DNA of 25,942 bases from IMG/VR virus record IMGVR_UViG_2563366768_000033. One strand, 5' to 3'. This document shows positions 1,369-17,893 of the stretch, piece after piece; within the stretch, counting starts at the first letter, position 1, and every line of letters begins with the position of its first letter. The stretch is from a virus. Its lineage: Duplodnaviria; Heunggongvirae; Uroviricota; Caudoviricetes. The translations under genes were made by a program, and so were the position numbers. The notes beneath the pieces are model-generated. The model did not search any database and was not told the DNA's origin. It saw only the letters and a program-made list of their open reading frames with translations.

Positions 1369-1444
1369 GCCGATATAGCTCAGTTGGTAGAGCAGCGCAT
1401 TCGTAATGCGAAGGTCGTAGGTTCGACTCCTATTATCGGCACCA
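1369..1444 (+). tRNA. thrW: tRNA-Thr (anticodon CGT)
   Basis: 76-nt GCCGATATAGCTCAGTTGGTAGAGCAGCGCATTCGTAATGCGAAGGTCGTAGGTTCGACTCCTATTATCGGCACCA with encoded CCA; lies just 3' of proA as thrW does in E. coli. Confidence 0.95.
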
Positions 1445-1458
1445 TTTAAATCAATAAG

Positions 1459-2433
1459 TTACACATCATTAGTACCTTCCTTATTTTTTGACTGGGACAA
1501 ATTTGGGACCGATGGGTTCAGGATCGAGTCTATTTGCCGTGCGTGTTCGGTAAGGTGATTAGGTGCAAGGTGAGCATATCGACGAACCATTTCGATAGAC
1601 TCCCAGCCTCCCATTTCCTGTAACACTGACAACGGGACTCCGGCTTGAACCAGCCAACTTGCCCAGGTGTGTCTCAAGTCGTGAAATCTGAAATCATCAA
1701 TACCAGCCCGTCTCAGCGCCGCTTTCCAGGCTGTGTTTGCGTCATACCGCATCTTCCTTACTGTTGGCGCTTTCGTTCCGTCTGGTTTGGTACAGCTTTC
1801 CTTGTACACAAATACCCAACGGTGATGATTACCGATTTGTTTTTTCAATACGCGACATGCAGTATCATTCAGCGCAACGCCAATTGCGCGGTTTGATTTA
1901 CTCTCTTCCGGGTTTATCCATGCCACCCGGCGCTGCATATCTATTTGTTGCCATTCAAGGTTGATGATGTTCGAGCGTCTTAAGCCTGTTGCCAGTGCAA
2001 ATTCAACAACAGACTTTAATGGCTCCGGACATTCATCAATCAGCCTTTGTGCTTCATGGGGCTCCAGCCAGCGGAGCCGTTTATTCTTTGGTTGAGGCAC
2101 TTTAATAATTGGTGCCTTATCGAGCATTTTCCATTCACGCTCTGCGGCTCTTAGCAGGGCCTTTATAAATGAAAGATGCGTAGCCTTCGTTGCAACGGAC
2201 GCTGGTTTTGGCGTGTATTCTGGAACAGGTTTCCCTTTTTTTCTGCATGCTTCTGCCCTGAGTTTCCAGTTTTCCTCATGACGCCGGTTCGTCATTTTCT
2301 GCATTGCTGAATAAATTTTTGATTCAGTAATGTCTCTTAGTTGCATTCCTGCGAAATGTTGAAGCCAGAATCCGATCTGCTTTCCATTGAGCCTGTTTCT
2401 CTGCGCGACGTTCGCGGCGGCGTGTTTGTGCAT
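1459..2433 (-). CDS. phage tyrosine integrase, lambdoid IntD-like catalytic region; apparently 5'-truncated and fused to lambda N DNA
   Basis: 324-aa ORF with tyrosine-recombinase motifs ([17 protein letters not shown]...MVRRYAHL); adjacent to thrW and transcribed toward it. Its first 19 codons are lambda N sequence read in another frame, so the native arm-binding N-terminus (about 85 aa by comparison with recalled IntD) is missing. Confidence 0.8.
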
Positions 2434-2437
2434 CCAT
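2324..2437 (-). pseudogene. N: lambda N antiterminator, 5' fragment (first 20 codons) ending at a deletion junction
   Basis: Minus-strand frame reads [20 protein letters not shown], the arginine-rich N-terminus of lambda N, then diverges (DRILASTF...) and stops at 2324; located just downstream of nutL/PL as in lambda. Confidence 0.75.
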
Positions 2438-2594
2438 CTGGATTCTCCTGTTAGTTAGCTTTGGTTGTGTGTGGGAGTCGTAGTCCTGAACGAAAACACC
2501 CCGCAATGGCACATTGGCTGCTAATCCGGATTCGCACTTCCGGCCAATGCTTCGTTTCGTATCACACACACCAAAGCCTTCTGCTTTGAATGCT

Positions 2595-2625
2595 GCCCTT
2601 CTTCAGGGCTTAATTTTTAAGAGCA
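2595..2625 (-). promoter_or_regulatory. nutL (boxA 2617-2625, boxB hairpin 2595-2609)
   Basis: Minus strand reads TGCTCTTAAAAATTAAGCCCTGAAGAAGGGCAG, matching lambda nutL boxA-spacer-boxB (GCCCTGAAGAAGGGC stem-loop). Confidence 0.8.
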
Positions 2626-2654
2626 TCACCTTCATGGTGGTTAGTGCGTCCTGC

Positions 2655-2730
2655 TGATGTGCTTAGTATCACCGCTAGTGGTATTTGTGTCAACACCGCC
2701 AGAGGTAATTTATCACCGCAGATGGTTATC
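2655..2730 (-). promoter_or_regulatory. lambda PL promoter with operators OL1 (2667-2683), OL2 (2691-2707), OL3 (2711-2727)
   Basis: TATCACCGCTAGTGGTA, CAACACCGCCAGAGGTA and TATCACCGCAGATGGTT are 17-bp cI operator half-palindromes in lambda OL order; leftward -35 TTGACA (top-strand TGTCAA 2688-2693) and -10 GATACT (top-strand AGTATC 2665-2670). Confidence 0.85.
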
Positions 2731-2808
2731 TGTATGTTTTTTATATAGATTTATTTTTTGCAGGGTTGTGTGGCTTGGGAGGTGATCGAGAGATCAGAAT
2801 TGCGTTGT

Positions 2809-3198
2809 TTAGTGAGTTGCACCTATTAATTTTAAAATAAATACAATTGGTGTTTTTCGAGTTTTTCTTAACTCTTCATGCAGCTCCGTTCTCAGAATAT
2901 ATGATTTTTCGAGTTTGAAATTCTTGCGACCAGGCGTCTTATTGCCAGGCTCAGGAAGTGGAAGGCGTGTTTGAATGTCGAGTGGTGGACAGTCATAGAA
3001 GTAAATTCTATAAAGCTCAAGCGGTTCCCTACGTTCTTGTGATTGACGTTTTCCATTAAGATGGGAAAGAACCATTGACCATATTACTTTCATTATGCAT
3101 TGCGCAGTCAGTTCATGCTCGGCGAAGTGTTTACGATGCGTAGCATGAACACGCTGCATGAAAAAACCCGCATCAATTAAAATTGCTGCTTTCTTCAT
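2809..3198 (-). CDS. hypothetical protein (129 aa) in the slot lambda uses for rexAB between OL and cI; function unknown
   Basis: ORF MKKAAILIDAGFF... on the cI strand directly downstream of cI. Its N-terminus has a hydrophobic-IDxG start reminiscent of NYN/PIN-like nucleases but the motif set is incomplete. The last ~12 codons run into lambda-homologous DNA near 2845, so the 3' end may be junction-derived. Confidence 0.5.
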   Translation of the reverse strand: MKKAAILIDAGFFMQRVHATHRKHFAEHELTAQCIMKVIWSMVLSHLNGKRQSQERREPLELYRIYFYDCPPLDIQTRLPLPEPGNKTPGRKNFKLEKSYILRTELHEELRKTRKTPIVFILKLIGATH

Positions 3199-3325
3199 AA
3201 GAGTCCCAAAAAAATAGCCCAGAGCCGTTATGCAGATATTAACAATTGTCTGCGAACGGGGCTGGGCTTGGTTTAATTAATCTATGCCAAGTTGACTGTG
3301 CCGTCAACATAAAACTTACTTCCTA

Positions 3326-4042
<717 letters not shown>

Positions 4043-4049
4043 TTAAATC

Positions 4050-4116
4050 TATCACCGCAAGGGATAAATATCTAACACCGCGCGTGTTGACTACTTTACC
4101 TCTGGCGGTGATAATG
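4050..4116. promoter_or_regulatory. lambda OR region: OR3 (4050-4066), OR2 (4073-4089), OR1 (4097-4113), PRM and PR (-35 TTGACT 4087-4092, -10 GATAAT 4110-4115)
   Basis: TATCACCGCAAGGGATA / TAACACCGCGCGTGTTG / TACCTCTGGCGGTGATA between divergent cI and cro, followed by AAGGAGG and the cro ATG at 4140. Confidence 0.9.
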
Positions 4117-4130
4117 GTTGCATGTACTAA

Positions 4131-4340
<210 letters not shown>

Positions 4341-4347
4341 ATAACCC

Positions 4348-4379
4348 CGCTCTTACACATTCCAGCCCTGAAAAAGGGC
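4348..4379 (+). promoter_or_regulatory. nutR (boxA CGCTCTTA 4348-4355, boxB GCCCTGAAAAAGGGC 4365-4379)
   Basis: Direct match to the lambda nutR boxA/boxB arrangement between cro and cII. Confidence 0.8.
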
Positions 4380-4458
4380 ATCCAATTAAACCACACCTAT
4401 GGTGTATGCATTTATTTGCATACATTCAATCAATTGTTATCTAAGGAAATACTTACAT

Positions 4459-4752
4459 ATGGTTCGTGCAAACAAACGCAACGAGGCTCTACGAATCGAG
4501 AGTGCGTTGCTTAACAAAATCGCAATGCTTGGAACTGAGAAGACAGCGGAAGCTGTGGGAGTTGATAAGTCGCAGATCAGCAGGTGGAAGAGAGACTGGA
4601 TTCCAAAGTTCTCAATGCTGCTTGCTGTTCTTGAATGGGGGGTCGTTGACGACGACATGGCTCGATTGGCGCGACAAGTTGCTGCGATTCTCACCAATAA
4701 AAAACGCCCGGCGGCAACCGAGCGTTCTGAACAAATCCAGATGGAGTTCTGA
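4459..4752 (+). CDS. cII: CII transcriptional activator (97 aa)
   Basis: ATG at 4459 gives MVRANKRNEALRIESALLNKIAMLGTEKTAEAVGVDKSQISRWKRDWIPKFSMLLAVLEWGVVDDDMARLARQVAAILTNKKRPAATERSEQIQMEF, i.e. lambda CII; the ORF track's upstream extension (4399) is not used. Confidence 0.95.
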   Translation: MVRANKRNEALRIESALLNKIAMLGTEKTAEAVGVDKSQISRWKRDWIPKFSMLLAVLEWGVVDDDMARLARQVAAILTNKKRPAATERSEQIQMEF

Positions 4753-4774
4753 GGTCATTACTGGATCTATCAAC
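4697..4774 (-). ncRNA. oop: oop antisense RNA (about 77 nt) overlapping the cII 3' end
   Basis: Minus strand from 4774 reads GTTGATAGATCCAGTAATGACCTCAGAACTCCATCTGGATTTGTTCAGAACGCTCGGTTGCCGCCGGGCGTTTTTTATT, matching recalled lambda oop with its GC hairpin and U-tract terminator. Confidence 0.75.
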
Positions 4775-4784
4775 AGGAGTCATT

Positions 4785-5707
4785 ATGACAAATACAGCAA
4801 AAATACTCAACTTCGGCAGAGGTAACTTTGCCGGACAGGAGCGTAATGTGGCAGATCTCGATGATGGTTACGCCAGACTATCAAATATGCTGCTTGAGGC
4901 TTATTCGGGCGCAGATCTGACCAAGCGACAGTTTAAAGTGCTGCTTGCCATTCTGCGTAAAACCTATGGGTGGAATAAACCAATGGACAGAATCACCGAT
5001 TCTCAACTTAGCGAGATTACAAAGTTACCTGTCAAACGGTGCAATGAAGCCAAGTTAGAACTCGTCAGAATGAATATTATCAAGCAGCAAGGCGGCATGT
5101 TTGGACCAAATAAAAACATCTCAGAATGGTGTATCCCTCAAAACGAGGGAAAATCCCCTAAAACGAGGGATAAAACATCCCTCAAATTGGGGGATTGCTA
5201 TCCCTCAAATTGGGGGATTGCTATCCCTCAAAACAGGGGGACACAAAAGACACTATTACAAAAGAAAAAAGAAAAGATTATTCGTCCGAGAATTCTGGCG
5301 AATCCTCTGACCAGCCAGAAAACGATCTTTCTGTGGTTAAACCGGATGCTGCAATTCAGAGCGGCAGCAAGTGGGGAACAGCAGAAGACCTGACCGCCGC
5401 AGAGTGGATGTTTGACATGGTGAAGACCATCGCGCCATCAGCCAGAAAACCGAATTTTGCTGGGTGGGCTAACGATATCCGCCTGATGCGTGAACGTGAC
5501 GGACGTAACCACCGCGATATGTGTGTGCTTTTCCGCTGGGCCTGCCAGGACAACTTCTGGTCCGGTAACGTGCTGAGTCCGGCCAAACTCCGCGACAAGT
5601 GGACCCAGCTCGAAATCAACCGTAACAAGCAACAGGCAGGCGTGACAGCCAGCAAACCAAAACTCGACCTGACAAACACTGACTGGATTTACGGGGTGGA
5701 TTTATGA
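4785..5707 (+). pseudogene. O: lambda O replication initiator, frameshifted inside the ori iteron region
   Basis: N-terminal part (MTNTAKILNFGRGNFAG...ISEWCIPQNEGKSPKTRDKTSLKLGDCYPS) is in frame 0 and stops at 5393 after reading through unrelated sequence. The C-terminal O sequence (SKQGDTKDTITKEKRKDYSSENSG...DWIYGVDL) continues in frame +2 to the stop at 5705-5707. The shift coincides with a 23-bp tandem duplication at 5177-5222. Confidence 0.85.
5133..5240. repeat. ori-lambda iterons: five 18-bp O-binding repeats (5133, 5153, 5177, 5200, 5223) where lambda has four; third unit duplicated
   Basis: ATCCCTCAAAACGAGGGA, ATCCCCTAAAACGAGGGA, ATCCCTCAAATTGGGGGA (twice, each with TTGCT spacer = exact 23-bp tandem repeat 5177-5199/5200-5222), ATCCCTCAAAACAGGGGGA, followed by the AT-rich ori segment. 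Confidence 0.85.
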
Positions 5708-6015
5708 AAAACATCGCCGCACAGATGGTTAACTTTGACCGTGAGCAGATGCGTCGGATCGCCAACATCGATAACCAGGACATGACGATATCGGTCTGGG
5801 TCTTTCCTGATACTGATATTTCAGATGTATCGCGTGAGTTAATTGCGGCAATTAAACAGGGGTATCTAACAGTAAAAGCCGCCGGGGTATGGGCGGGGGG
5901 CATTGAAACACCTTCGGTGGAAACTCCATCGGAAGGCTCTAAATTTTTTGGTTTTGATATGGATAACGAATTCATCAGTGGTTTTGATGTAGGGGCATGG
6001 GGAGTATTACTCTGA
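5704..6015 (+). pseudogene. P: lambda P replication protein, first 21 codons, fused at a deletion junction to the 3' end of an unrelated (tail-module) reading frame
   Basis: ATG overlaps the O stop (ATGA) as in lambda; product begins MKNIAAQMVNFDREQMRRIAN (lambda P N-terminus) then switches to IDNQDMTISVWVFPDTDIS... and stops at 6013-6015. Confidence 0.7.
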
Positions 6016-6725
6016 TGGCGAAAAATGACTTTAAAGCGTTTGCAACTGATCGAAATGCCAATGTTATGTCGCAGGAGGAATGGGAAGCGTTGCCTGCGCT
6101 TATATCCGGATTTACAGCAGGGAAAGCATCCAGTGCGCAAGTCAATAAGGTTATTCGGCAGGCCAGCTTTATTGCTGCAGCTCTGGCCCAGTTTGTAAGT
6201 GATAAAACGCAACGGGATGTGCTTGATAATGGTGATCTGCCCGGTTTTGTTGAATTGCTGGGATCGGGGTTTGCTGTTGAATACCTGAGCCGCAAGAATC
6301 CGTTTGGCGATATCAAATCGGACGGCACGGTGAAAACGGCTCTTCAAAACCTTGGTTTGGGAGAAGCGGCAAAACGGGATGTGGGGACAGGGGAAAATCA
6401 GATACCGGACATGGCCTCTTTTGCCAGTGGTAATGGATGGATGAAATTACCCAACGGGAAAATCCTGCAATATGGTCGTGGTGCGGTTACGCCGACATTA
6501 TCGACGCAAACAATGAGAATTACATTCAGCATCCCTTTCCCCAAAAAAGCGGACTGCGCCATGCTTACTCATTCTGGTGATGGCGGTGCGCCTTTAGGCG
6601 CTGGGCGAGGGTTCGTGATGACTGCAGAAGGCCCAACGTTAACCGGCTTTAATTCTGCTTACAGAACGTCATCAACCAGCGACACGGTATCGATGAATTA
6701 CAGTTGGTGGGCTGTTGGTGAGTAA
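6015..6725 (+). CDS. side tail fibre protein, variable C-terminal segment (StfP-like); alternative start 5997
   Basis: Product [61 protein letters not shown]... is characteristic of e14/Mu/P1-type tail fibre variable regions; followed by a tail-fibre assembly gene and an inverted second set. Confidence 0.7.
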
Positions 6726-6736
6726 TTTTATTCAGG

Positions 6737-7189
6737 GTGATTTATATGGACGAATATGTTTATAGCGCAAGGCATAATGCTTTTTTCCCTGTGGATATGA
6801 TTGATAAATATAAATCAGAGGGATGGGATTTATCAGACGCTAAGGAAGTAAATCAAAATATTATCAGTGAGTTTATGGCTGAACCGCCACAAGGAAAAAT
6901 CCGTATTGCCGGAGATGATGGGCTGCCTGCGTGGGCAGATATTCCTCCACCCACGCATGAAGAGCTTATTGAAATTACTGAATCAGAAAGACAGCTACTA
7001 ATTAACCAGGCCAACGAATACATGAACAGTAAGCAATGGCCCGGTAAAGCGGCTATTGGTCGTCTGAAAGGTGACGAACTGACGCAATATAATTTGTGGC
7101 TGGATTATCTGGACGCACTGGAGCTGGTCGATACTTCCGGTGCGCCAGATATTGAATGGCCTACGCCTCCGGCAGTTCAGGCCAGATGA
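6737..7189 (+). CDS. tail fibre assembly protein (Tfa)
   Basis: 150-aa ORF directly after stf; C-terminus ...LTQYNLWLDYLDALELVDTSGAPDIEWPTPP is the conserved Tfa tail, mirrored by the convergent paralogue at 7161-7754. Confidence 0.8.
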   Translation: MIYMDEYVYSARHNAFFPVDMIDKYKSEGWDLSDAKEVNQNIISEFMAEPPQGKIRIAGDDGLPAWADIPPPTHEELIEITESERQLLINQANEYMNSKQWPGKAAIGRLKGDELTQYNLWLDYLDALELVDTSGAPDIEWPTPPAVQAR

Positions 7190-7754
7190 CATCCGGCGCG
7201 GTGCTGGTATCTGTTGCCGTCACCGCGTCAATGTAATCCAGCACGGCGTTAAGTCGGGTTGTTTCTGCCTGAGTCAGTTTCCGTCCGGCCTGTAACTTCA
7301 GCTGAATCAGACTAATGGAAGCCATTGCTGCATCAATCAGTGATTGGCGCTGTGCTTCTGCCGCGTCTACTGCGGCACTGTGTTGTGCCTCAGTGTCTGT
7401 CACCCATTTCTCACCATCCCATTTATCGTATGGCGTTAACGGTGAAATCGTGACATAACCGTCTTTGATGGCACCGATATAATCCACTGTAACAGCTGCG
7501 CCATTTTCGATTGAGTAAACAGTCTCATTGCGATGGTCTTCTTCATGGCTCCATCCCTTACCTGTAAATACTGCCACTCTTCCCGGAATGTTTTCGCCAG
7601 GGTCAATACCAGTGGAACAGGCGGGCATACTTACGCCAGTATTAATATATTCATCAGACCAGCCCGTATACTCAGATGTTTCAGCATCATAATAAAAACA
7701 ACGCATATCGCCCGGCACTGTAGCCAGCCCATTTTCATCAAAAACAGGTTTCAT
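7161..7754 (-). CDS. tail fibre assembly protein, alternative copy (TfaE-like) in inverted orientation
   Basis: 197-aa ORF MKPVFDENGLATVPGDMRCFYYDAETSEYTGW... ending ...LNAVLDYIDAVTATDTSTAPDVIWPELPEA; convergent and overlapping with the plus-strand tfa, as in G/P invertible segments. Confidence 0.8.
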   Translation of the reverse strand: MKPVFDENGLATVPGDMRCFYYDAETSEYTGWSDEYINTGVSMPACSTGIDPGENIPGRVAVFTGKGWSHEEDHRNETVYSIENGAAVTVDYIGAIKDGYVTISPLTPYDKWDGEKWVTDTEAQHSAAVDAAEAQRQSLIDAAMASISLIQLKLQAGRKLTQAETTRLNAVLDYIDAVTATDTSTAPDVIWPELPEA

Positions 7755-8251
7755 TATTTAGCCCTCACCAGAAAGTTAAATGCAATATTTCGCGGTCTGA
7801 CTGCAACAAAATTCACACCATCACCCACAGAGTTACTGGTGAAATTAAATCGTGAAAATCCTGGCTGATTTCCGGCGATGCCATCATGAAAGTTAATTGC
7901 GTGTCCCGCACCTTCGCCTATATTCCCGGCAAACTGAGAAAAGTTTGTAGCTGCCTGCCAGCTTAATAATTCGCGACCACCGTCTGCACCTCGCCCGTCA
8001 TCCCAGATACGAATGAAATCACCGCGGGCTTCAGGTAATACCAGCGAAGGAAACACTTTCGCCAGCACAGGATAATCAGTGGCAGAGAATTTCGCGCCGT
8101 TGAACTTCAAAAACACCATACAGGACCAGCTGTCGATTACAGTATTTGGCATTGCAGCGGACGGCCAGAAGAACGGAACGCCAATAGCTGGAGCACCTTC
8201 TCCCAAACCAACGTTTATGAAAATGCAGAAATAACGAGCAAATGGCATCAT
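7754..8251 (-). CDS. alternative tail fibre C-terminal segment (StfE-like), currently in the off orientation
   Basis: 165-aa minus-strand ORF abutting the pin upstream region with no constant tail-fibre N-terminal part attached; position equivalent to stfE of e14. Confidence 0.65.
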   Translation of the reverse strand: MMPFARYFCIFINVGLGEGAPAIGVPFFWPSAAMPNTVIDSWSCMVFLKFNGAKFSATDYPVLAKVFPSLVLPEARGDFIRIWDDGRGADGGRELLSWQAATNFSQFAGNIGEGAGHAINFHDGIAGNQPGFSRFNFTSNSVGDGVNFVAVRPRNIAFNFLVRAK

Positions 8252-8277
8252 TCCTGCTTTTGTCAGGGAGATCTACC

Positions 8278-8832
8278 ATGCTTATTGGCTATGTACGTGT
8301 GTCAACAAATGACCAGAACACAGATCTACAACGTAATGCGCTGAACTGTGCAGGATGCGAGCTGATTTTTGAAGACAAGATAAGCGGTACAAAGTCCGAA
8401 AGGCCGGGACTGAAAAAACTGCTCAGGACATTATCGGCAGGTGACACTCTGGTTGTCTGGAAACTGGATCGGCTGGGGCGCAGTATGCGGCATCTGGTCA
8501 TTCTGGTTGAGGAGTTGCGCGAACGTGGCGTTAATTTTCGCAGCCTGACGGATGCTATTGATACCAGTACCCCAATGGGGCGCTTTTTCTTTCATGTGAT
8601 GGGGGCCCTGGCTGAAATGGAACGAGAACTGATTGTTGAACGAACAAAAGCTGGACTGGAAGCTGCTCGCGCACAGGGACGAATTGGTGGACGTCGTCCC
8701 AAACTTACACCAGAACAATGGGCGCAGGCCGGACGATTAATTGCAGCAGGAATTCCTCGCCAGAAGGTAGCGATCATCTATGATGTTGGTGTATCGACAC
8801 TGTATAAGAAGTTTCCGGCCGGAGATAAATGA
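8278..8832 (+). CDS. pin: serine DNA invertase (Pin/Gin/Hin family), 184 aa
   Basis: From ATG at 8278: MLIGYVRVSTNDQNTDLQRNALNCAGCELIFEDKISGTKSERPGLKKLLRTLSAGDTLVVWKLDRLGRSMRHLV... with catalytic Ser in VRVSTNDQ and C-terminal HTH; placed directly after the inverted stf/tfa pair. Confidence 0.9.
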   Translation: MLIGYVRVSTNDQNTDLQRNALNCAGCELIFEDKISGTKSERPGLKKLLRTLSAGDTLVVWKLDRLGRSMRHLVILVEELRERGVNFRSLTDAIDTSTPMGRFFFHVMGALAEMERELIVERTKAGLEAARAQGRIGGRRPKLTPEQWAQAGRLIAAGIPRQKVAIIYDVGVSTLYKKFPAGDK

Positions 8833-8889
8833 AACCGTAGCACGTCGTATGCAAGATCGTGCTGCGGTTTATGCTTACCACTTGAAGAT

Positions 8890-9759
<870 letters not shown>

Positions 9760-9842
9760 CTAACCCTTTGAATTTACATAGCGCAAAAAGATACCTTTCC
9801 TCATAATGTGAGCTAATTTTATGTTTCGTTTGATGATCGGGT

Positions 9843-9904
9843 CGGTCTCGAAAACCGGAGTAGGGGCAACTCTACCGGGGGTTCAAATCCCCCTCTCTCC
9901 GCCA
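9843..9904 (+). other. 3' fragment (about 62 nt) of tRNA-Ser serU; attachment-site remnant
   Basis: CGGTCTCGAAAACCGGAGTAGGGGCAACTCTACCGGGGGTTCAAATCCCCCTCTCTCCGCCA matches the serU tRNA from the anticodon arm to the CCA end; the 5' third of the tRNA is absent. Confidence 0.8.
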
Positions 9905-10486
9905 CTTTATCAATGACTTATCTCCCGACTTCCCGTCTTGCTTTTCCTAAACAGAACAATCGTAGAATATTCTTGAAGGGTTAGATCGTCACTGTTTTCT
10001 GTTCGATACTGTGACATTCAGCACTTGATTCGCTATGGATCTGACAGGAAGGTTTTGAGCGAAAATCTGCAGTTATTCAGTCGTTTTCTTATCGGTCACC
10101 ATTATTCTTTTAGACATTGATCCTACAAAGCTGCCGCAAAGTTGGTGGTGGGAACTGAAGTTGCGTAGAGAAGGGGTCAATACCCGGAGGCAAACATGGG
10201 CTGGCAAAAGTGTAGCGGTATTAGGCGCAGCTATTTAGCCTAGTTATGTTTTATGAAAACTTGATATCATATAAGTGTCTTACTTATTGGCTGTAAATAA
10301 GTTTTTCCTAAGGAATTGTTTCTTGAGTATCATTTGTAACTGTAACGGAATTTATAATCCTTTGCTTTATTGTTACGGTATTTTTTATCACACCCTATTT
10401 TTAGTGGTTTTTTATACTGAAGTTTGGCAAAGTGAACTTTATATACATATACTTCATCCTGGTTTCAGTTAAATTGGGGGGATGAT

Positions 10487-11230
10487 ATGGCAACTACATG
10501 TTCAGTTATATTGATTTTGGAGTCCTTTGATGTTTATTTCGGAAAAGAGAGTGTGTTTCTGGAGAGAGGTTCATCTGTACTTGTCGACTCTAGCTCTAGA
10601 GATTTTTTCCTGACATATCCTGAAAGAGTGATAGTGGCGGATTTTGGCGCTGAGTTTATTAGTCGCTATTTGAAAGCTAATAACTTAAGGGATATTTCTG
10701 ATTGTAGGGAATATCCATCTTATTTAAAAATAAACTTTGCTGACTTCAGTTTAATTAAAGGATTAATTAGTTGGGCTAATCACTGTGCTGAATACATAGA
10801 AATTTTTGATGAGTCTATTGCTTTTACATGTCTCTCTGCATTTTCTTCTGAAAAACAATTTGGAGTATTTCTGTTTGGATGTTTGAAAAGCACAGGGGCT
10901 AAAGTTAAAACGATTATTCATACGGATTTATCTGCACCATGGCGTCTTAAGGATATATCATCAAGATTATATCTCAGCGAAAGTTTACTAAAGAGGAAAT
11001 TGAAAGAAGAGGGGGTATCATTCAGTAAGATCATACTTGATGAGAGGATGCAAATGGCTGAATATTTACTCAGCACTCGTTGTTATCCTATTAGTAAAGT
11101 AGCTAAGGTCTGTGGTTATGCCAGTGTCTCATACTTTACTTATGTATTTAGACGTTATTTTGGTGTTTCTCCAAGTCAATACTCTCAGAGGAGTTCAGAA
11201 AGTAAAATTCTTACTCACCAGGGAATCTGA
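10487..11230 (+). CDS. AraC/XylS-family transcriptional regulator (AppY/Rns-like)
   Basis: 247-aa product with C-terminal dual HTH (WRLKDISSRLYLSESLLKRKLKEEGVSFSKIILDERMQMAEYLL...KVAKVCGYASVSYFTYVFRRYFGVSPSQY); AT-rich gene and upstream region; GGGGG Shine-Dalgarno before the ATG. Confidence 0.75.
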   Translation: MATTCSVILILESFDVYFGKESVFLERGSSVLVDSSSRDFFLTYPERVIVADFGAEFISRYLKANNLRDISDCREYPSYLKINFADFSLIKGLISWANHCAEYIEIFDESIAFTCLSAFSSEKQFGVFLFGCLKSTGAKVKTIIHTDLSAPWRLKDISSRLYLSESLLKRKLKEEGVSFSKIILDERMQMAEYLLSTRCYPISKVAKVCGYASVSYFTYVFRRYFGVSPSQYSQRSSESKILTHQGI

Positions 11231-11271
11231 TCATTGTTCTTGCCCCCTTATTTCCAGACAGGGGGGGTATC

Positions 11272-11720
11272 TTAAGTTAACGTTACCCGCTGACGTCGAT
11301 ATTCTCGCGGAGAGCGATAACCCAACGCACTGTGCGGATGGTTTTCATTGTAATGTTCGATCGCCACTGCAAGATTATGCAATGCCGTTCTTACATTCGG
11401 TTTCGGCATGAACGCGATGTAGTCTTCCTTCATCGTTTTCACGAACCTTTCTGCAATTCCATTACTCTGAGGACTGCTGATTGCCGTTGTGCAGGGCTCC
11501 AGATTCAACTCTCTGGCGAACTGCCGTGTTTCATGCGCTCTATACGCTGAACCGTTATCTGTCAGCCACTGGATGGACTGTTCCGGTACTTTATCGCCAA
11601 AGCGTTTTTCTATCGCTCCTAACATGACATCCTGCACTGTCGCTTTATCGTAACCTCCCGTGCTTGCGGCCCAGTCTATGGCTTCACGATCGCAACAGTC
11701 CAGGGCGATTCATCTGGGCC
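11272..11720 (-). mobile_element. IS2-family (IS3 group) transposase orfB, 3' fragment only
   Basis: Minus-strand translation ...[72 protein letters not shown]...[14 protein letters not shown] parallels the C-terminal integrase-core region of IS2 InsD as recalled; no orfA, no 5' half and no terminal inverted repeats seen. Confidence 0.7.
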
Positions 11721-11984
11721 AATCCTTGCTCATAACAGGCATTCACTTCAGTCATGGCAGAAAGGTATGCATGCTGGAGAAGTCGTGAAAGAAAAGAAGA
11801 CTGCTGCGCCGTTTGTCGTCACGTTTATCTTCATTGGCTATGCAAGTCGTAATACAAGGTGGGACAAAACTGAGACACATAAGGCCTCGCAATGGCTTGC
11901 AAGGCTTTACATGTTTTGATGTGGTGGGACGTGTGAGCGCAGTGTTGATGGGGTAATGCTTTGAATTAGAAGCGGATTCTTATA

Positions 11985-12030
11985 ATTCGTAATGCGAAGG
12001 TCGTAGGTTCGACTCCTATTATCGGCACCA
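11985..12030 (+). other. direct repeat of the thrW 3' end (46 nt); junction between the two stacked elements
   Basis: ATTCGTAATGCGAAGGTCGTAGGTTCGACTCCTATTATCGGCACCA is identical to thrW 1399-1444; followed 160 bp later by a P4-type integrase gene. Confidence 0.85.
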
Positions 12031-12192
12031 TCTCAACTTCCTCAAACGTCCGTATTAGTCCATAAAATCTCTGATTTATAACATTTTTTATTCTTTTAAG
12101 TCCATAGTAGTCCGTAACCATCCAGTAGAATCCGGTACTGAATGTGTATAGGATTGTGTATATGTTCCTGTTCGGTCTGGATTCCTATACAC

Positions 12193-13374
12193 ATGCCTTT
12201 AAACGATATGCAGATTCGCCGCGCTAAGCCTGAAGCTAAAGCCTATACATTTGGAGATGGGCTAGGGTTGTCATTACTTATAGAACCTAATGGAAGCAAG
12301 AGTTGGCGGTTCCGCTATCGCTATGCCGGCAAACCCAAAATGATCTCGCTTGGTGTTTACCCAACGATCACCCTTGCCGATGCTCGTTCCCGTCGTGATG
12401 AAGCTCGAAAACTTGTGGCAGAAGGAAAGAACCCTAGTGAGGTTCGAAAAGAGCAAAAGCTAGCTATGCAAACAGAGTCAGAGAACGCCTTCGAAAAGAT
12501 AGCCAGAGAGTGGCATCAACTTAAATCTGCTAAATGGTCGGCGGGATATGCATCAGACATCATGGAAGCGTTTAAGAACGACATTTTTCCTTATGTCGGA
12601 ACAAGGCCTGTGGGAGAGATTAAACCGCTAGAGCTGCTGAACGTTCTGCGTAAAATTGAGAAACGTGGTGCGTTGGAGAAAATGCGCAAAGTGCGGCAGC
12701 GTTGCTCCGAAGTGTTTCGCTACGCAATTGCAACGGGTAGGGCGGAGTACAATCCTGCGGCTGATCTCTCCAGCGCTCTCGAAGTACACCAATCCAATCA
12801 TTTCCCATTCCTAAAAGCTGATGAGATACCTGATTTTCTACGTGCCTTAGAGGGTTACTCCGGGAGTAAGCTTGTCCAGATAGCCACGAAATTACTGATG
12901 ATTACGGGTGTGAGAACCATCGAATTACGCGCGGCATTATGGCAAGAATTTGATCTGGATAACGCTATTTGGGAAATTCCTGCTGAAAGGATGAAAATGC
13001 GTAGGCCACATCTTGTGCCCTTATCATCTCAAGCGGTAGATTTACTCAATGAACTCAAGATCATGACAGGGAACTATCGTTATGTTTTTCCAGGGCGGAA
13101 CGATCCGAATAGGCCAATGAGCGAAGCGAGTATAAATCAAGCCATTAAGCGTATTGGGTATGGAGGAAAAGTCACTGGACATGGTTTTCGTCATACCCTT
13201 TCTACAATCCTGCATGAGCAAGGTTTTGAGAGTGCTTGGATTGAAATCCAGTTGGCTCATGTAGATAAAAATTCTATTAGGGGGACTTATAACCATGCTC
13301 AATATTTTAGTGGAAGGAAGTCTATGATGGACTGGTACAGTAATTTGATATTTGAAAGACTAAAAAGGAGTTAA
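12193..13374 (+). CDS. P4-family tyrosine integrase
   Basis: From ATG at 12193: MPLNDMQIRRAKPEAKAYTFGDGLGLSLLIEPNGSKSWRFRYRYAGKPKMISLGVYP... (P4/CP4-57-type N-terminus) with C-terminal catalytic region HGFRHTLSTILHEQG...RGTYNH; the ORF track's upstream extension is not used. Confidence 0.9.
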   Translation: MPLNDMQIRRAKPEAKAYTFGDGLGLSLLIEPNGSKSWRFRYRYAGKPKMISLGVYPTITLADARSRRDEARKLVAEGKNPSEVRKEQKLAMQTESENAFEKIAREWHQLKSAKWSAGYASDIMEAFKNDIFPYVGTRPVGEIKPLELLNVLRKIEKRGALEKMRKVRQRCSEVFRYAIATGRAEYNPAADLSSALEVHQSNHFPFLKADEIPDFLRALEGYSGSKLVQIATKLLMITGVRTIELRAALWQEFDLDNAIWEIPAERMKMRRPHLVPLSSQAVDLLNELKIMTGNYRYVFPGRNDPNRPMSEASINQAIKRIGYGGKVTGHGFRHTLSTILHEQGFESAWIEIQLAHVDKNSIRGTYNHAQYFSGRKSMMDWYSNLIFERLKRS

Positions 13375-13377
13375 TTT

Positions 13378-13794
13378 GTGTCTCAACCACTTTCGGAAAT
13401 ATTGACATGGGATGATGAACAATGGGAGGTATTTGTCCATGATTGGCTTATTGTCTGTAAATCAGATGATTACCCGTGGAGCGAACGTTTGGGAGGAGCT
13501 GGAGATAAAGGTAGAGACGTTGTTGGATATAAATCGGATCCTAACGTAGAAGGTTATTCTTGGGATAATTATCAATGCAAACTGTACAAAAAAAGTTTAG
13601 GGTTCTCTGATGTTGTAGTTGAGTTTGGAAAACTTATCTATTTTACTCTGAATGGTGATTATCCCATCCCTCAGAAGTACTTTTTTGTGGCACCCTATGA
13701 TTTATCTACTACATTTTCTAATTTATTGAAAAATAAAAACGAGCTTAAAAAAGCAGTCCTTGATTCATGGGATTCAGCAATTTCAAAAAAATAA
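13378..13794 (+). CDS. cargo gene 1, N-terminal part: Mrr-like PD-(D/E)xK nuclease domain (frame broken at A7 tract 13785-13791)
   Basis: GTG start 7 nt after AAGGAG (13365-13370) and 4 nt after the int stop; product contains GGAGDKGRDVVGY...(17 aa)...YQCKLY, the GxGDxGxD / QxK pattern of Mrr-type nuclease cores. Very AT-rich. Confidence 0.6.
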   Translation: MSQPLSEILTWDDEQWEVFVHDWLIVCKSDDYPWSERLGGAGDKGRDVVGYKSDPNVEGYSWDNYQCKLYKKSLGFSDVVVEFGKLIYFTLNGDYPIPQKYFFVAPYDLSTTFSNLLKNKNELKKAVLDSWDSAISKK

Positions 13795-14384
13795 CTAAAA
13801 AGATTGATATTCCATTAGATGATGAAATAAAAAAATATATTGAGGATTTTGATTTTAGTATTTTTTACTCTCTACCCTTATCATTGATTTTAAATGATAT
13901 TGCAAATACACACCTTTATTTTAAGTACTTTAACGAGCTGTATGTCGTGAGAATCCCTCCAAATGAAATTCCAACATACAATTCAAAAAAAGAGTCTGTA
14001 TATGTTAATGCACTGCTTCAAGCCTATTCAGAGCATGGAAATAAAACTTATAGTTCTTTCTTAGAGCTTGATGATCCATACAGACGACACTTTAATAATA
14101 GTAGAAATGATTTTTATTTTGCATCTTCGCTTGAGGTTTTTGTCCGCGAAGTATTTAAAGATGATGTATTCAAAGCATTGAAATGTTACATTTCATCTTC
14201 AATTGAACCCGTCTTTTATGAAGACCATAATTATGCATTTATTAGGTGTAATGCAGTCTTGAAGCAGGCTGTTCTGACACCAATTGCACATTCAGTACTA
14301 TCAAAAATATGTGAAGCAAATGATAAAAAAGGAATATGCCATCATTTGGTTAATGATGGTGAAGTAATTTGGACGGTGAGATAA
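13767..14384 (+). CDS. cargo gene 1, C-terminal part (unknown domain); probably the continuation of 13378-13794
   Basis: This frame is open from 13764 and overlaps the previous ORF's end across an A7 run; one extra A would join them into a single ORF of about 336 codons. Stop TAA at 14382-14384 overlaps the next ATG. Confidence 0.55.
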   Translation: MGFSNFKKITKKIDIPLDDEIKKYIEDFDFSIFYSLPLSLILNDIANTHLYFKYFNELYVVRIPPNEIPTYNSKKESVYVNALLQAYSEHGNKTYSSFLELDDPYRRHFNNSRNDFYFASSLEVFVREVFKDDVFKALKCYISSSIEPVFYEDHNYAFIRCNAVLKQAVLTPIAHSVLSKICEANDKKGICHHLVNDGEVIWTVR

Positions 14385-14842
14385 TGGTTAGAATTTATAA
14401 TTCAAGTTTAGAAGTGGCATGTCGAATGGCGAAAGTGCTCGTCGCTATTTATCCTTCTTCATTAAGCCTTGAACGGCTTATTTGTTTTGATTTTATTTTA
14501 GTAAATCTTAAGGATTTTTTACCTGAAGAGATTAGTCTTCATCCTCCAATACCCCGTAGAGATGCTCAGTTAGCCCTAAAACGAGAGATTGTTTTAGAAT
14601 CATTGGCTTTGTTGCAAGGCTATGAACTAGCCTCAAAAATTTATACACATCGTGGTTTTGTATATAAAGCTTCTGAAAAAACATATGCATTTACAAATTC
14701 TCTACATAATGAATATGTTGCGCAGATGGAGCATAATATAAATTTGGTGGTTAAGTTATATAGTGATATTCCTGATGAGCAGTTGCAATCAATTATAAAA
14801 AATAAAATTGGCAAATATGATATGGAATTTAATTATGAATGA
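14384..14842 (+). CDS. cargo gene 2: small protein (152 aa), predicted mostly helical; candidate middle component
   Basis: ATG at 14384 overlaps the upstream stop (TAATG); product MVRIYNSSLEVACRMAKVLVAIYPSSLSLERLICFDF...; its stop overlaps the next gene's ATG (ATGAATGA). Confidence 0.6.
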   Translation: MVRIYNSSLEVACRMAKVLVAIYPSSLSLERLICFDFILVNLKDFLPEEISLHPPIPRRDAQLALKREIVLESLALLQGYELASKIYTHRGFVYKASEKTYAFTNSLHNEYVAQMEHNINLVVKLYSDIPDEQLQSIIKNKIGKYDMEFNYE

Positions 14843-15467
14843 CAATTTTTTTACGTTCAGAAAAATAAAGGTAACCGGATTCAATAAATTAGATGCTATA
14901 ATTGAATTTGGTTCTAAATTGACTATTTTATATGGTGGTTCTGACTCTGGAAAAACATACATATATTATTTGATTCGATATTTATTAGGGAGTGAAAAAC
15001 TAAAAAATAAAGATATCGATCATGCTCAAGGTTATGATTTAGCCTATCTGGAATTTAATTTTCAAGGTAGGGTAATGACAATTGAGAGGTCTCTTCAGGA
15101 TAGCGCCCATTACAGATTATATGATTCGAGCATTGAAAATGTTAGTGAAGCTAATCTGTTGATGGTTTTTTCCAAAAGTGCTTCGTCTAAAAAGAGTTTT
15201 TCATCATACTTTTATGGTAGGTTGAATTTCAAAGAGGCTAAAGTAAGAACAAACTTAAGTAATACTCTTCATAAATTTAATCTTAATAATGTTTTTGAAT
15301 TTTTTTGTATTGATGAATTAAGAGTGTTAACTGAGAAGTCGTTAATTCTTTCTGATATTCCTAGCGAGGAGACAAAAAGAAAGTCTGAATTTAAATTCCT
15401 TTTAACTCAGAGAGATGATACTAACTCCTTAGCAGAAAAACCAAATAAAAAAGCAAGATATTTTTAA
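14835..15467 (+). CDS. cargo gene 3, N-terminal head of an SMC/Rad50-like ABC ATPase (Walker A); ends at an in-frame TAA
   Basis: MNDNFFTFRKIKVTGFNKLDAIIEFGSKLTILYGGSDSGKTYIYYLIRYLLG: classic SMC/RecF-type N-terminus with Walker A GGSDSGKT. The ORF stops at TAA 15465-15467 inside a T5A7 tract while the same frame stays open downstream. Confidence 0.7.
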   Translation: MNDNFFTFRKIKVTGFNKLDAIIEFGSKLTILYGGSDSGKTYIYYLIRYLLGSEKLKNKDIDHAQGYDLAYLEFNFQGRVMTIERSLQDSAHYRLYDSSIENVSEANLLMVFSKSASSKKSFSSYFYGRLNFKEAKVRTNLSNTLHKFNLNNVFEFFCIDELRVLTEKSLILSDIPSEETKRKSEFKFLLTQRDDTNSLAEKPNKKARYF

Positions 15468-16088
15468 AAAAATCAAATTGCAAATATTTATGAGGAATTG
15501 AAAGCGCAATTAATTTATCCTGAATATGATCAAGTCATTGTTTCAAGAGAACTTGAGAAAGTAGAGCAAGATATTGAATCATCGAAAGATATATTGAAAG
15601 GTATTGTTGATGCACTTGATGATAAGAAGCAATTATTAAAAGAGTTAAGTGATGAATTATATTCAATCAGTGACAGGGAAAAATACTTATCATTACTCAT
15701 TGAAAGATTTAGTCTTCTTAAAGACCAATACTTTATAGATCTACAAAGAATAGATGTTGTATCACAGGCGAATTTCTATTTAAATAATTTTGCAGATATT
15801 TATTGTGAGTTCTGTAATACACCGCAAAAAAAAGAAAATGAAATATCATATGATGATTGTTTTTTGTCGTGTAATGCAGAAAAATTGAAAATCAAAAGCC
15901 AGCTGAAAGGATTAATTGAATCAATCGGATCTAATGTTCGCGAACATGAATTAATTATGTTAAGAAAAAATGATGTTAATGAAATTTATCAATCAGAAAA
16001 AAGTGATTTTAAGACGTTAGAAGATAAAAATATAAAACAATACATTCATCTCTTGAATCACTTTATGAATATAAAGACAATCTTTTAA
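15468..16088 (+). CDS. cargo gene 3 continued: coiled-coil segment with CxxC...CxxxC zinc-hook-like motif
   Basis: Same frame as 14835-15467, open right after the TAA, with no ATG for about 150 codons (the ORF track uses TTG at 15498). Heptad-like charged/leucine-rich sequence and YCEFCN...(14 aa)...CFLSCN (15804-15872). Confidence 0.55.
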   Translation, partial: KNQIANIYEELKAQLIYPEYDQVIVSRELEKVEQDIESSKDILKGIVDALDDKKQLLKELSDELYSISDREKYLSLLIERFSLLKDQYFIDLQRIDVVSQANFYLNNFADIYCEFCNTPQKKENEISYDDCFLSCNAEKLKIKSQLKGLIESIGSNVREHELIMLRKNDVNEIYQSEKSDFKTLEDKNIKQYIHLLNHFMNIKTIF

Positions 16089-16654
16089 TGGATCACACAA
16101 AACATAGCATTCTATCTTCATTACAAGATAAAGAAGATGATGTTGACGAACTTAAATACTCCGCCGAGGACTTTGACTCCTTAACAGTAGCTGATTTGTA
16201 TGATATAGAAATAGCGATGCAAGACTTTTTGAATGATATAAATTTTGAAAATTCTAAAGATAACAAAGTGCGATTTGACGAAGATACATATGACTTTAAT
16301 ATCAATGGGAAACGCCGAGGAATGTTTGGTAAAGGTACCCGTGCAGTAATGCATGCTATATTTACCATTTGCTTTGCGGAATTTTTATCAAGAAAAGGGA
16401 ATCCATTCATTGGATTTGTTGTGCTTGATAGTCCATTAGTGACGCACTTTGATAAAGATAGAGGGGGTTCTCTATCGGATGTTAATAGCGTCAGTCTCAG
16501 TGATTCATTTTATCACGCATTAATCAAAAGGGACTATAATTTCCAGATTGTAATTCTTGAGAATAAAGGTCCGACGTTCCAAATAAAAATTAATGATGCA
16601 AATAAAATCCATAACTTAAATAAGAATGGAAGCTCTGGTTTTTATCCTGTTTAA
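16088..16654 (+). CDS. cargo gene 3, C-terminal ABC head segment (Walker B-like FIGFVVLDSP), separate ORF or frame-shifted continuation
   Basis: ATG overlaps the upstream stop (TAATG); product contains ...GKGTRAVMHAIFTICFAEFLSRKGNPFIGFVVLDSPLVTHFD, i.e. a run of hydrophobics ending in D as in Walker B, with Ser where the catalytic Glu normally sits. Confidence 0.55.
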   Translation: MDHTKHSILSSLQDKEDDVDELKYSAEDFDSLTVADLYDIEIAMQDFLNDINFENSKDNKVRFDEDTYDFNINGKRRGMFGKGTRAVMHAIFTICFAEFLSRKGNPFIGFVVLDSPLVTHFDKDRGGSLSDVNSVSLSDSFYHALIKRDYNFQIVILENKGPTFQIKINDANKIHNLNKNGSSGFYPV

Positions 16655-17063
16655 TACATTAAAAATATAACTGCTAATTGGGGTGCTCGAAATTATATTT
16701 CGTTTCGAGCGCTCAGTTCATTTCTAAATAATTTGCAAAATTATTTTGGGTACTTTCGCCTCTACACTTCCTTCGGGTGGTTCCACAATAATGGATCTCA
16801 CCGGCGTTTGATATTTTATAATCTAACCCCTTAGCGCGCGCAGCCCCCCACGCCTGCTCGCTTCGCTTAACAGACTGGTTTTCATGCATTCCGCAAATCG
16901 TCTCAGAAGCCACCACACAAGGGCTTTCGCGTCAAAAATGGTGCATGAGAATCATGCGTTTTCATGCGCTATAGACATGCACTCATGCGCTCTCAGGCCA
17001 GCCAGGGAAAAGGCGTAAAAAATCCCAGTACTGGACCGGGATTACGTGGGCTTTTTTTGCTAA

Positions 17064-17336
17064 TCAGACAGGAATTTGCTGACGGCTTGACAGCTTTGAC
17101 GCGGAGCCATAGCGATTGAGAGTTTGCTGTTGTTTTTCCGGCATTTGTGCTTTCTCTGATTCCTGTTCATTGCGCCGGGGCTTCATGATTATCGTATCCA
17201 CACTTTCCAGTGCGGTAAATGTGTAGGAACATTCAAGATTCTGGCACTGATACCATGAGCGTTTAACCGATGGTGCTTCATAGGCGGAGGTTCTGGCGTG
17301 TGCCGTCGTACCGCATTCGGGACATTTAAGTGCCAT
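17064..17336 (-). CDS. Ogr/Delta-family zinc-finger late-gene activator (90 aa)
   Basis: MALKCPECGTTAHARTSAYEAPSVKRSWYQCQNLECSYTFTALESV: CxxC...CxxxxC arrangement and sequence typical of P2 Ogr / P4 Delta. Confidence 0.85.
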   Translation of the reverse strand: MALKCPECGTTAHARTSAYEAPSVKRSWYQCQNLECSYTFTALESVDTIIMKPRRNEQESEKAQMPEKQQQTLNRYGSASKLSSRQQIPV

Positions 17337-17341
17337 TAATA

Positions 17342-17893
17342 TTACTCCTGCATGCCGTTAATGTAATCCAGACGTTGCTGAAAGCGCAGTTGTTGTGCAG
17401 GGGTGTAAGAGCTCTGGCAATCACGAACCATCATGGGGTCAGGCATCACACCGGATTCATCCAGAATCATACGATAATCCCCGGCAATTTCAGGCGGTGT
17501 TATTGCCAGCTGGCGAACCAGAGCATTGCGTAATATACGGGACGCAACGTCAACCCCTCCGCGCCCCTTCAGGAACGGAGCCAGTGCAGATGTCAGGGCT
17601 GCTCCATTCGCCTGCATAAAATTGCTGAGAGCGTCTTCTGTGCAGGCCTCCATCAGTTGATGCTGCGAGTAAATGCATTCGCGCGCAGCACAGTTAATTT
17701 GCCATTTCAGCACATCCAGATGTTCCCGCTGTAATTCGAGCTGTCGAGCATAATCTGCTGGTTTTTCCATGGCAGTGAGGAGTGATTCTATCTGTTGTTC
17801 AACGGCTTTTCGGCTCTCACTATGTCCAGCCCACAGAATACGGGCATTTCTAAAACTGATAAGCGCTTGGTCTGGAGTGACTCGGGCCATCAT
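17342..17893 (-). CDS. Psu-like protein (P4 polarity suppression / capsid decoration family)
   Basis: 183-aa product with ...DVLKWQINCAARECIYSQHQ...NFMQANGAALTSALAPFL, resembling recalled P4 Psu (...VRKWQVNQAAGRYI...DFMQQHGTALAAALAP...); start overlaps the upstream gene's stop (ATGA). Confidence 0.7.
   Translation of the reverse strand: MMARVTPDQALISFRNARILWAGHSESRKAVEQQIESLLTAMEKPADYARQLELQREHLDVLKWQINCAARECIYSQHQLMEACTEDALSNFMQANGAALTSALAPFLKGRGGVDVASRILRNALVRQLAITPPEIAGDYRMILDESGVMPDPMMVRDCQSSYTPAQQLRFQQRLDYINGMQE

Follow-up and report, generated by a model that had tools for sequence, protein, structure and literature searches.

How does a prophage that resides in the tRNA-Thr gene thrW come to hold a piece of the tRNA-Ser gene serU? 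The question is raised by a stretch of 25,942 nucleotides (hereafter, the window) that is listed among viral sequences (IMGVR_UViG_2563366768_000033) and is identical to positions 298615-324556 of the chromosome of Escherichia coli O157:H7 Sakai (NC_002695.2), with the order proA, thrW, prophage Sp1, the P4-like prophage Sp2 and yagP (Table 1). The serU fragment lies inside Sp1, in the 823-nt gap between a GIY-YIG gene and a gene for an AraC-family regulator. RefSeq annotates neither the fragment nor a 57-nt remnant of an insertion sequence (IS) further along the same gap, and no description of the fragment was found in the literature on serU with thrW or CP-933H, a search on specialised transduction returning nothing but general reviews. 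Here we argue that, in all likelihood, the fragment belongs to a fossil right attachment site (attR) of a phage that was once integrated at serU; this site would have been captured together with adjoining host DNA of the type found in strain Q65, is now carried as phage cargo, and would have been brought into O157:H7 by a phage that integrates at thrW.

The surroundings can be described briefly. In the annotation of Sp1, the O and P genes are pseudogenes and head genes are absent. This prophage is annotated as lambda-like; its invertible segment with tail-fibre, tfa and pinE genes (6015-8832) is of the contractile-tail phage type, like SfIV or e14, and so are the complete relatives of Sp1. The window has just two copies of the 3' end of thrW, one in thrW itself and one (12006-12030) at the boundary of Sp1 and Sp2; no third copy was found at the annotated right end of Sp2 (~24900) with up to three mismatches allowed. 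In Sp2, an isrK Hfq-binding RNA and a C4 antisense RNA adjoin each other (19908-19985 and 20054-20141, by Rfam), the pair overlapping the annotated repressor gene region.

Table 1. Features of the window that bear on the origin of the serU fragment; positions are counted from the first nucleotide of the window.
Feature	Position	Strand	Source
thrW, intact tRNA-Thr(CGT), left attachment site of Sp1	1369..1444	+	ARAGORN, Rfam, RefSeq
Prophage Sp1	1428-12013		RefSeq annotation
Sp1 integrase, thrW-specific type, RefSeq pseudogene, non-cognate to the serU fragment	1459..2433	-	
pinE DNA invertase, in the phage right arm common to serU-integrated prophages	8278..8832	+	annotation
LEM-3-like GIY-YIG gene, final gene of the phage arm, adjoining a serU-type attachment site	8890..9663	-	Pfam PF22945
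Phage-side (P) arm of the putative fossil serU attR	9664..9842	+	
Displaced 3' 62 nt of serU, identity block of the putative fossil attR	9843..9904	+	
Captured bacterial flank downstream of serU (B' arm and beyond), 278 nt	9905..10182	+	
Last 57 nt of ISEc33 (IS630 family) with right inverted repeat, internally truncated	10183..10239	+	
AraC-family regulator segment (CDS 10487-11230)	10240..11234	+	Pfam HTH_AraC, HTH_18; annotation
Partial ISEc48 (IS3 family), right limit of the shared module	11235..11704	-	RefSeq repeat_region
thrW 3' repeat, 46 nt, attR of Sp1 and left attachment site of Sp2	11985..12030	+	exact repeat
Prophage Sp2, P4-like	12014-24900		annotation

When the fragment is aligned with the 3' part of the E. 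coli serU gene for tRNA-Ser(CGA), all 62 nucleotides are identical; the identical stretch begins at the second base of the anticodon stem and ends with the terminal CCA. The tRNA lacks its first 28 nt, and no tRNA is predicted at this place by ARAGORN or Rfam. The first-pass annotation, which had described a match to serU from the anticodon arm through CCA with no 5' part, is borne out by this alignment, and the match is not restricted to a short generic T-arm. A functional tRNA-Ser gene was considered as well and rejected: with the first 28 nt gone, there is no complete cloverleaf with a paired acceptor stem. As a side observation, the working serU gene of Sakai (2712172-2712261, minus strand; L013:3173-3262), which was rebuilt by prophage Sp14, departs from the canonical gene by a compensatory pair of changes, A to G and T to C, both located in the variable arm; the canonical bases are kept both in the displaced fragment at the attR of Sp14 and in the Sp1 copy.

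The homology continues past CCA. For a further 278 nt, the window follows the native intergenic flank that leads from serU to yodB/zinT, with 96-97% identity to the serU loci of K-12 and Sakai, and in genomes that lack the module described below the homology ends exactly at 10182, as judged by a search centred on that position. Thus, the piece of the serU locus comprises 340 nt (62 of tRNA and 278 of flank), and the earlier statement that the fragment has no serU gene context does not hold.

Displaced 3' fragments of tRNA genes are found at the attR of prophages and islands that are integrated in tRNA genes, in the class of integration sites located at the anticodon loop. A phage that integrates at serU rebuilds the tRNA gene with its own copy, the native 3' end being displaced to the right end of the prophage and remaining attached there to the downstream chromosome. 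The fragment in Sp1 shares with such sites the span from the anticodon stem to CCA, the orientation of the tRNA, and the position between a phage arm on one side and native flank on the other; the window contains a parallel case in thrW (1399-1444 and 11985-12030). The left side was traced with a chimeric query that joined window positions 9300-10182 to the K-12 DNA following the flank up to yodB, that is, the arrangement expected for a serU prophage. This query was covered at 100%, with 97% identity, in MB15 and RMDEC332, and in Q5, GF130 and PM4 it was covered as far as a natural variant without yodB permits. In all five genomes, the true serU locus shows the GIY-YIG gene and the sequence of 9664-9842 directly next to the serU fragment, the flank and yodB/zinT. 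In MB15, the one serU prophage that was inspected end to end, this arrangement forms the right end of a ~39-kb prophage with an intact serU and a tyrosine integrase gene at the other end; the order is mtfA, intact serU, three cargo genes, tyrosine integrase, early, head and contractile-tail genes, tail fibres, pinE, the GIY-YIG gene, serU fragment and yodB. The attL/attR repeat of this prophage spans 68 nt, from GGAC to CCACT, and its right end is 96% identical to 8197-10182 of the window.

Judged from these comparisons, the segment 9664-10182 appears to be a complete fossil attR of a serU-integrating phage, with phage arm, core and host arm, lodged inside a thrW prophage. It shows three of the four features of an attR with a tRNA fragment, namely, an exact copy of the tRNA 3' end, the arm of a genuine phage attR on the 5' side and the native flank on the 3' side. 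The fourth is lacking: unlike a standard displaced fragment, this one lies away from serU, and the other end of Sp1 is formed by thrW and an unrelated integrase in place of an intact serU with a cognate integrase. Because the cognate tRNA and integrase are missing at the other end, we call this attR a fossil and not an active att site. The integrases of Sp1 and of the MB15 serU prophage share 31% identity over 58 aa only and are unrelated. The view that the fragment is an att repeat from the right end of an element integrated at serU, put forward from the window alone, is in agreement with the presence of the same left arm at true serU attR sites, as revealed by the comparison of flanks with five genomes carrying serU elements. 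Two details of these sites may be added. Three hypothetical genes separate the rebuilt serU (attL) of MB15 from the integrase gene (L006:7183-9434), so that in this phage type the integrase gene does not directly adjoin its attachment site. In isolate 68, VTB97448v and MB15, identity to serU begins 4 nt earlier (GGAC), Sakai having two substitutions there.

The flank also bears information on its donor. Over the 339 nt of fragment and flank that were compared (9844-10182), the fossil copies differ from each other at 2-4 positions (pairs computed) and from the serU flanks of K-12, MB15, Q5, PM4 and Sakai itself at 9-11 positions, the Sp1 fossil of Sakai and Sakai's own serU flank being separated by 11 differences. 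From the chromosomal serU locus of Q65, which is an empty site, the fossil copies differ at only 1-4 positions (3 for the copy in Sakai). The captured flank is, on this comparison, an allele that occurs naturally, as a minority, in E. coli chromosomes and is similar to that of Q65. Since this allele is Q65-like and unlike Sakai's own, the captured DNA arrived with a phage and does not derive from the O157 chromosome. Some E. coli lineages (Q65, Q5 and PM4 among them) lack yodB, so that zinT follows serU directly; Q65, the source of the allele nearest to the fossil, is such a strain.

Beyond the flank, the sequence changes in kind. Positions 10183-10239 match the 3' end of the intact ISEc33 on plasmid p94EC-1, right inverted repeat included; of an element defined by two inverted repeats and a transposase gene, only these last 57 nt are present. 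The body of ISEc33 would occupy the place where the serU flank now stands, which means that the host flank runs straight into the interior of the IS. The real and novel mosaic joint, between host flank and truncated ISEc33, is 10182|10183. The first-pass annotation had taken the fragment itself as the mark of a mosaic breakpoint; a breakpoint does exist, but it is located at 10182|10183, whereas 9842|9843 is the native junction of attR. The accompanying mention of an AraC/IS2 segment requires a correction, too: according to RefSeq, the IS to the right of the AraC-family gene is a partial ISEc48, and to the left of this gene stands the 57-nt remnant of the IS630 family. The ISEc48 stub likewise has its end turned towards the AraC-family gene, its body being truncated.

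Judging from gene order, the AraC-family gene is probably patE (z0321); Z0314 and Z0316 are tail-fibre genes of CP-933H. PatE, identified as z0321 in OI-8, belongs with PsrA and PsrB to the prophage-borne AraC-like regulators of EHEC (PMC10877973). As in the moron or accessory loci located by the attP of lambdoid phages, the fossil has tail-fibre genes on one side and the attachment site on the other; it immediately precedes the AraC-family gene and moves with this gene. Unlike those loci, it has no coding content and is a passenger in which the past of the locus is preserved.

Serotype-converting phages of Shigella flexneri, such as SfIV, integrate at thrW. To the right of the ISEc48 stub, the window continues with a phage arm that includes the thrW repeat (11860-12031) and is 98% identical to the att region of SfIV, and the contractile-tail gene set is likewise shared by the complete relatives of Sp1. 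The difference concerns the block from serU to the AraC-family gene (9843-11708), to which the SfIV record gives no match, its single match being the att region.

This block is not confined to Sp1. A 1.9-kb module consisting of the serU fragment, the flank, the ISEc33 stub, the AraC-family gene and the ISEc48 stub (9842-11708) is present in the deposited complete phage genomes PhiR70_1, ev099 and mEp332, with 98.8-99.3% identity and the match ending at 11708; host DNA contiguous with attR in the native order is, in other words, found inside phage genomes. In ev099 and mEp332, the module follows the side tail-fibre genes, and in ev099, the only one of the three phages whose integration module was looked at, it is located ~500 nt before the lambda attP core (GCTTTTTTATACTAA) and the integrase gene. 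Strain CT265 harbors a related prophage at ybhB-bioA, the similarity to ev099 stopping at the lambda attP core. Prophages of the thrW region in isolate 68 and VTB97448v, in which the right ends were examined, combine the right end of Sp1 with a full contractile-tail gene set. The exact joint sequence occurs in 537 of 5426 complete E. coli genomes (~10%) and in 30 IMG/VR contigs; a search limited to representative genomes, one per species, did not find it.

The left side of the module is variable. Among the 30 IMG/VR contigs, the GIY-YIG arm is found in 21 and an arm of the ev099 type in 9 (counted without low-complexity masking), and both types join at the start of the serU identity. The ev099-type arm, too, is a genuine arm of serU attR: in 131 genomes, it leads without a break into the fragment, the flank and yodB. 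Since the right part, with its unique joint, is of single origin, at least one exchange of the left arm within the serU homology is implied; this exchange could have been accomplished by homologous recombination or by a serU-type integrase. In one contig (IMGVR_UViG_2537561945_000005, L020:5272-6962), an insertion of ~1.35 kb interrupts the serU fossil ~41 nt after its start.

The history that we favor would begin with the integration of a temperate phage at serU in a Q65-like strain. The right end of this prophage, along with 278 nt of host DNA, would then be taken into a phage genome, either through imprecise excision of the lambda-bio type, followed or accompanied by an illegitimate joint inside ISEc33, or through a crossover anchored in copies of ISEc33, with a later deletion. 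By either route, the host flank would come to be joined to the inside of an ISEc33 copy that preceded the AraC-family gene, probably patE. At the next stage, the block, by then inclusive of the AraC-family gene, would be brought together with integration modules of other specificities (lambda att and thrW). A further recombination event, within the serU homology, is needed to place two left arms on one right part and would belong to the same history. Finally, a thrW-integrating phage would carry the block into the O157:H7 lineage and lose its replication and morphogenesis genes, giving rise to Sp1. The outcome is a block that is now carried as cargo by phages with other integrases, in which it is flanked by the tail-fibre genes and the attachment site.

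Specialised transducing phages of the lambda-bio type are formed by imprecise excision of a prophage. The phages considered here resemble them in carrying a hybrid attR and the adjoining host DNA in the native order, the original integration module being gone. They differ in that only 278 nt of non-coding host DNA are kept, ending in an IS stub and not in phage early genes, and in that the fossil product has become established in natural lineages of phages equipped with new integrases. The excision event is itself a reconstruction. Since the partner of the flank at the joint is the interior of an IS and not, as the lambda-bio model predicts, integrase-proximal phage DNA, at least one further step is needed. 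Genomes with an intact ISEc33 between the flank and the AraC-family gene were not found, nor were genomes with the AraC block downstream of chromosomal serU. In view of these missing intermediates, we infer the mechanism of capture, and the order of events with it, from what can be read directly, namely, the parts, their junctions, the spread of the block and the donor allele.

The most serious competing account retains the same fossil and alters the manner of its capture: a serU prophage and a phage related to it would have undergone a double crossover, with one exchange in the shared late genes and the other in two copies of ISEc33, one located downstream of the chromosomal serU attR and the other upstream of the phage AraC gene, a later deletion trimming the flank and the IS. 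The location of the joint inside ISEc33 is consistent with this account, as is the arrangement of the two IS stubs, with outer ends facing the AraC-family gene and truncated bodies, which is typical of IS-associated rearrangements; moreover, the prophage at lambda att that carries the AraC block shows further IS activity, the fossil being replaced by IS1 in CT265. Yet the genomes examined yielded neither an ISEc33 copy in the chromosomal flank of serU nor a complete ISEc33 preceding the AraC-family gene, and the double crossover takes two steps, against a single one for illegitimate recombination. We regard such a double crossover as possible, if somewhat doubtful.

A separate question is whether the fossil does anything today. 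Nothing in the sequence suggests a function, and the fossil appears to be inert cargo. A scan of 9600-10550 yielded a single promoter-like site (10424-10453), fewer than in shuffled sequences and located inside the AraC segment, and no terminator. The contrary proposal, that the fossil is not inert and serves either as a portable site at which serU-type integrases recombine DNA or as a 340-bp patch of homology, strikes us as unlikely. If true, it would allow unrelated phages to swap tail-end arms onto the AraC-family gene and integration modules, and it would explain why two genuine serU arms are found on one right part, joined exactly at the core.

Still less probable, in our estimation, is that the fragment represents a functional site or a small element in its own right, for example, the attP of a serU-specific satellite extending over 9843-12013, a selected secondary landing site, or a leader that controls the AraC-family gene. 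Such a role could account for the conservation of the module at 99-100% across two phage backbones, for the intactness of the core and one host arm, and for the two left arms that meet the core precisely, as would result from site-specific exchange. However, high identity is also expected from recent spread, no integrase gene was found between 9905 and 12013, and the arm that follows CCA is host DNA and not a phage P' arm; a tandem serU-specific element was rejected as well. A regulatory role, in turn, has to contend with the location of the only promoter-like site within the AraC segment itself and with CT265, which keeps the AraC-family gene with only ~200 nt of upstream sequence and without the fossil; the contig with an insertion inside the fragment also speaks against a working site.

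It seems extremely improbable that O157 DNA from serU, be it chromosome or island (the Sp14/CP-933U region), was moved to thrW within the same genome, although the serU locus of Sakai is indeed occupied by Sp14 and shows a displaced serU fragment followed by the same flank. The two Sakai flanks are separated by the 11 differences in 339 nt noted above, the Sp14 arm next to the fragment is unrelated to that in Sp1, its identity block begins at a different base, and phage genomes as well as other lineages contain the identical module; on these grounds, the Sp14 locus of Sakai was rejected as the origin. The suggestion that part of the island once resided at serU and was moved to thrW by recombination is, accordingly, retained in part: the left DNA does come from a serU element, but no move within this chromosome took place, given that the module is ~99% identical in phages and in prophages at thrW and attlambda and that the flank allele is Q65-like. 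As for chance or a generic T-arm likeness, the 62/62 identity, the 278-nt flank, the E-value of 2e-162 (BLAST) for 9844-10180 against Sakai's own serU attR, and a 25-nt probe from the T-arm and acceptor that hits one site in the window, with none expected from shuffles, leave no room for either.

Taken together, the captured serU attR is a new example of a well-known scar of phage mosaicism, informative but ordinary, and involves no new mechanism or kind of element. Its value is that of a dated, readable record of how the accessory locus of Sp1/CP-933H, with its AraC-family gene, probably patE, a regulator of acid resistance and LEE, was assembled: a phage once at serU, the uptake of Q65-like host DNA, an IS-mediated fusion and the transfer to at least two other integration specificities would all be inscribed in it. 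The joint 10182|10183, carried by about one in ten complete E. coli genomes, offers a handy marker for tracing this module.
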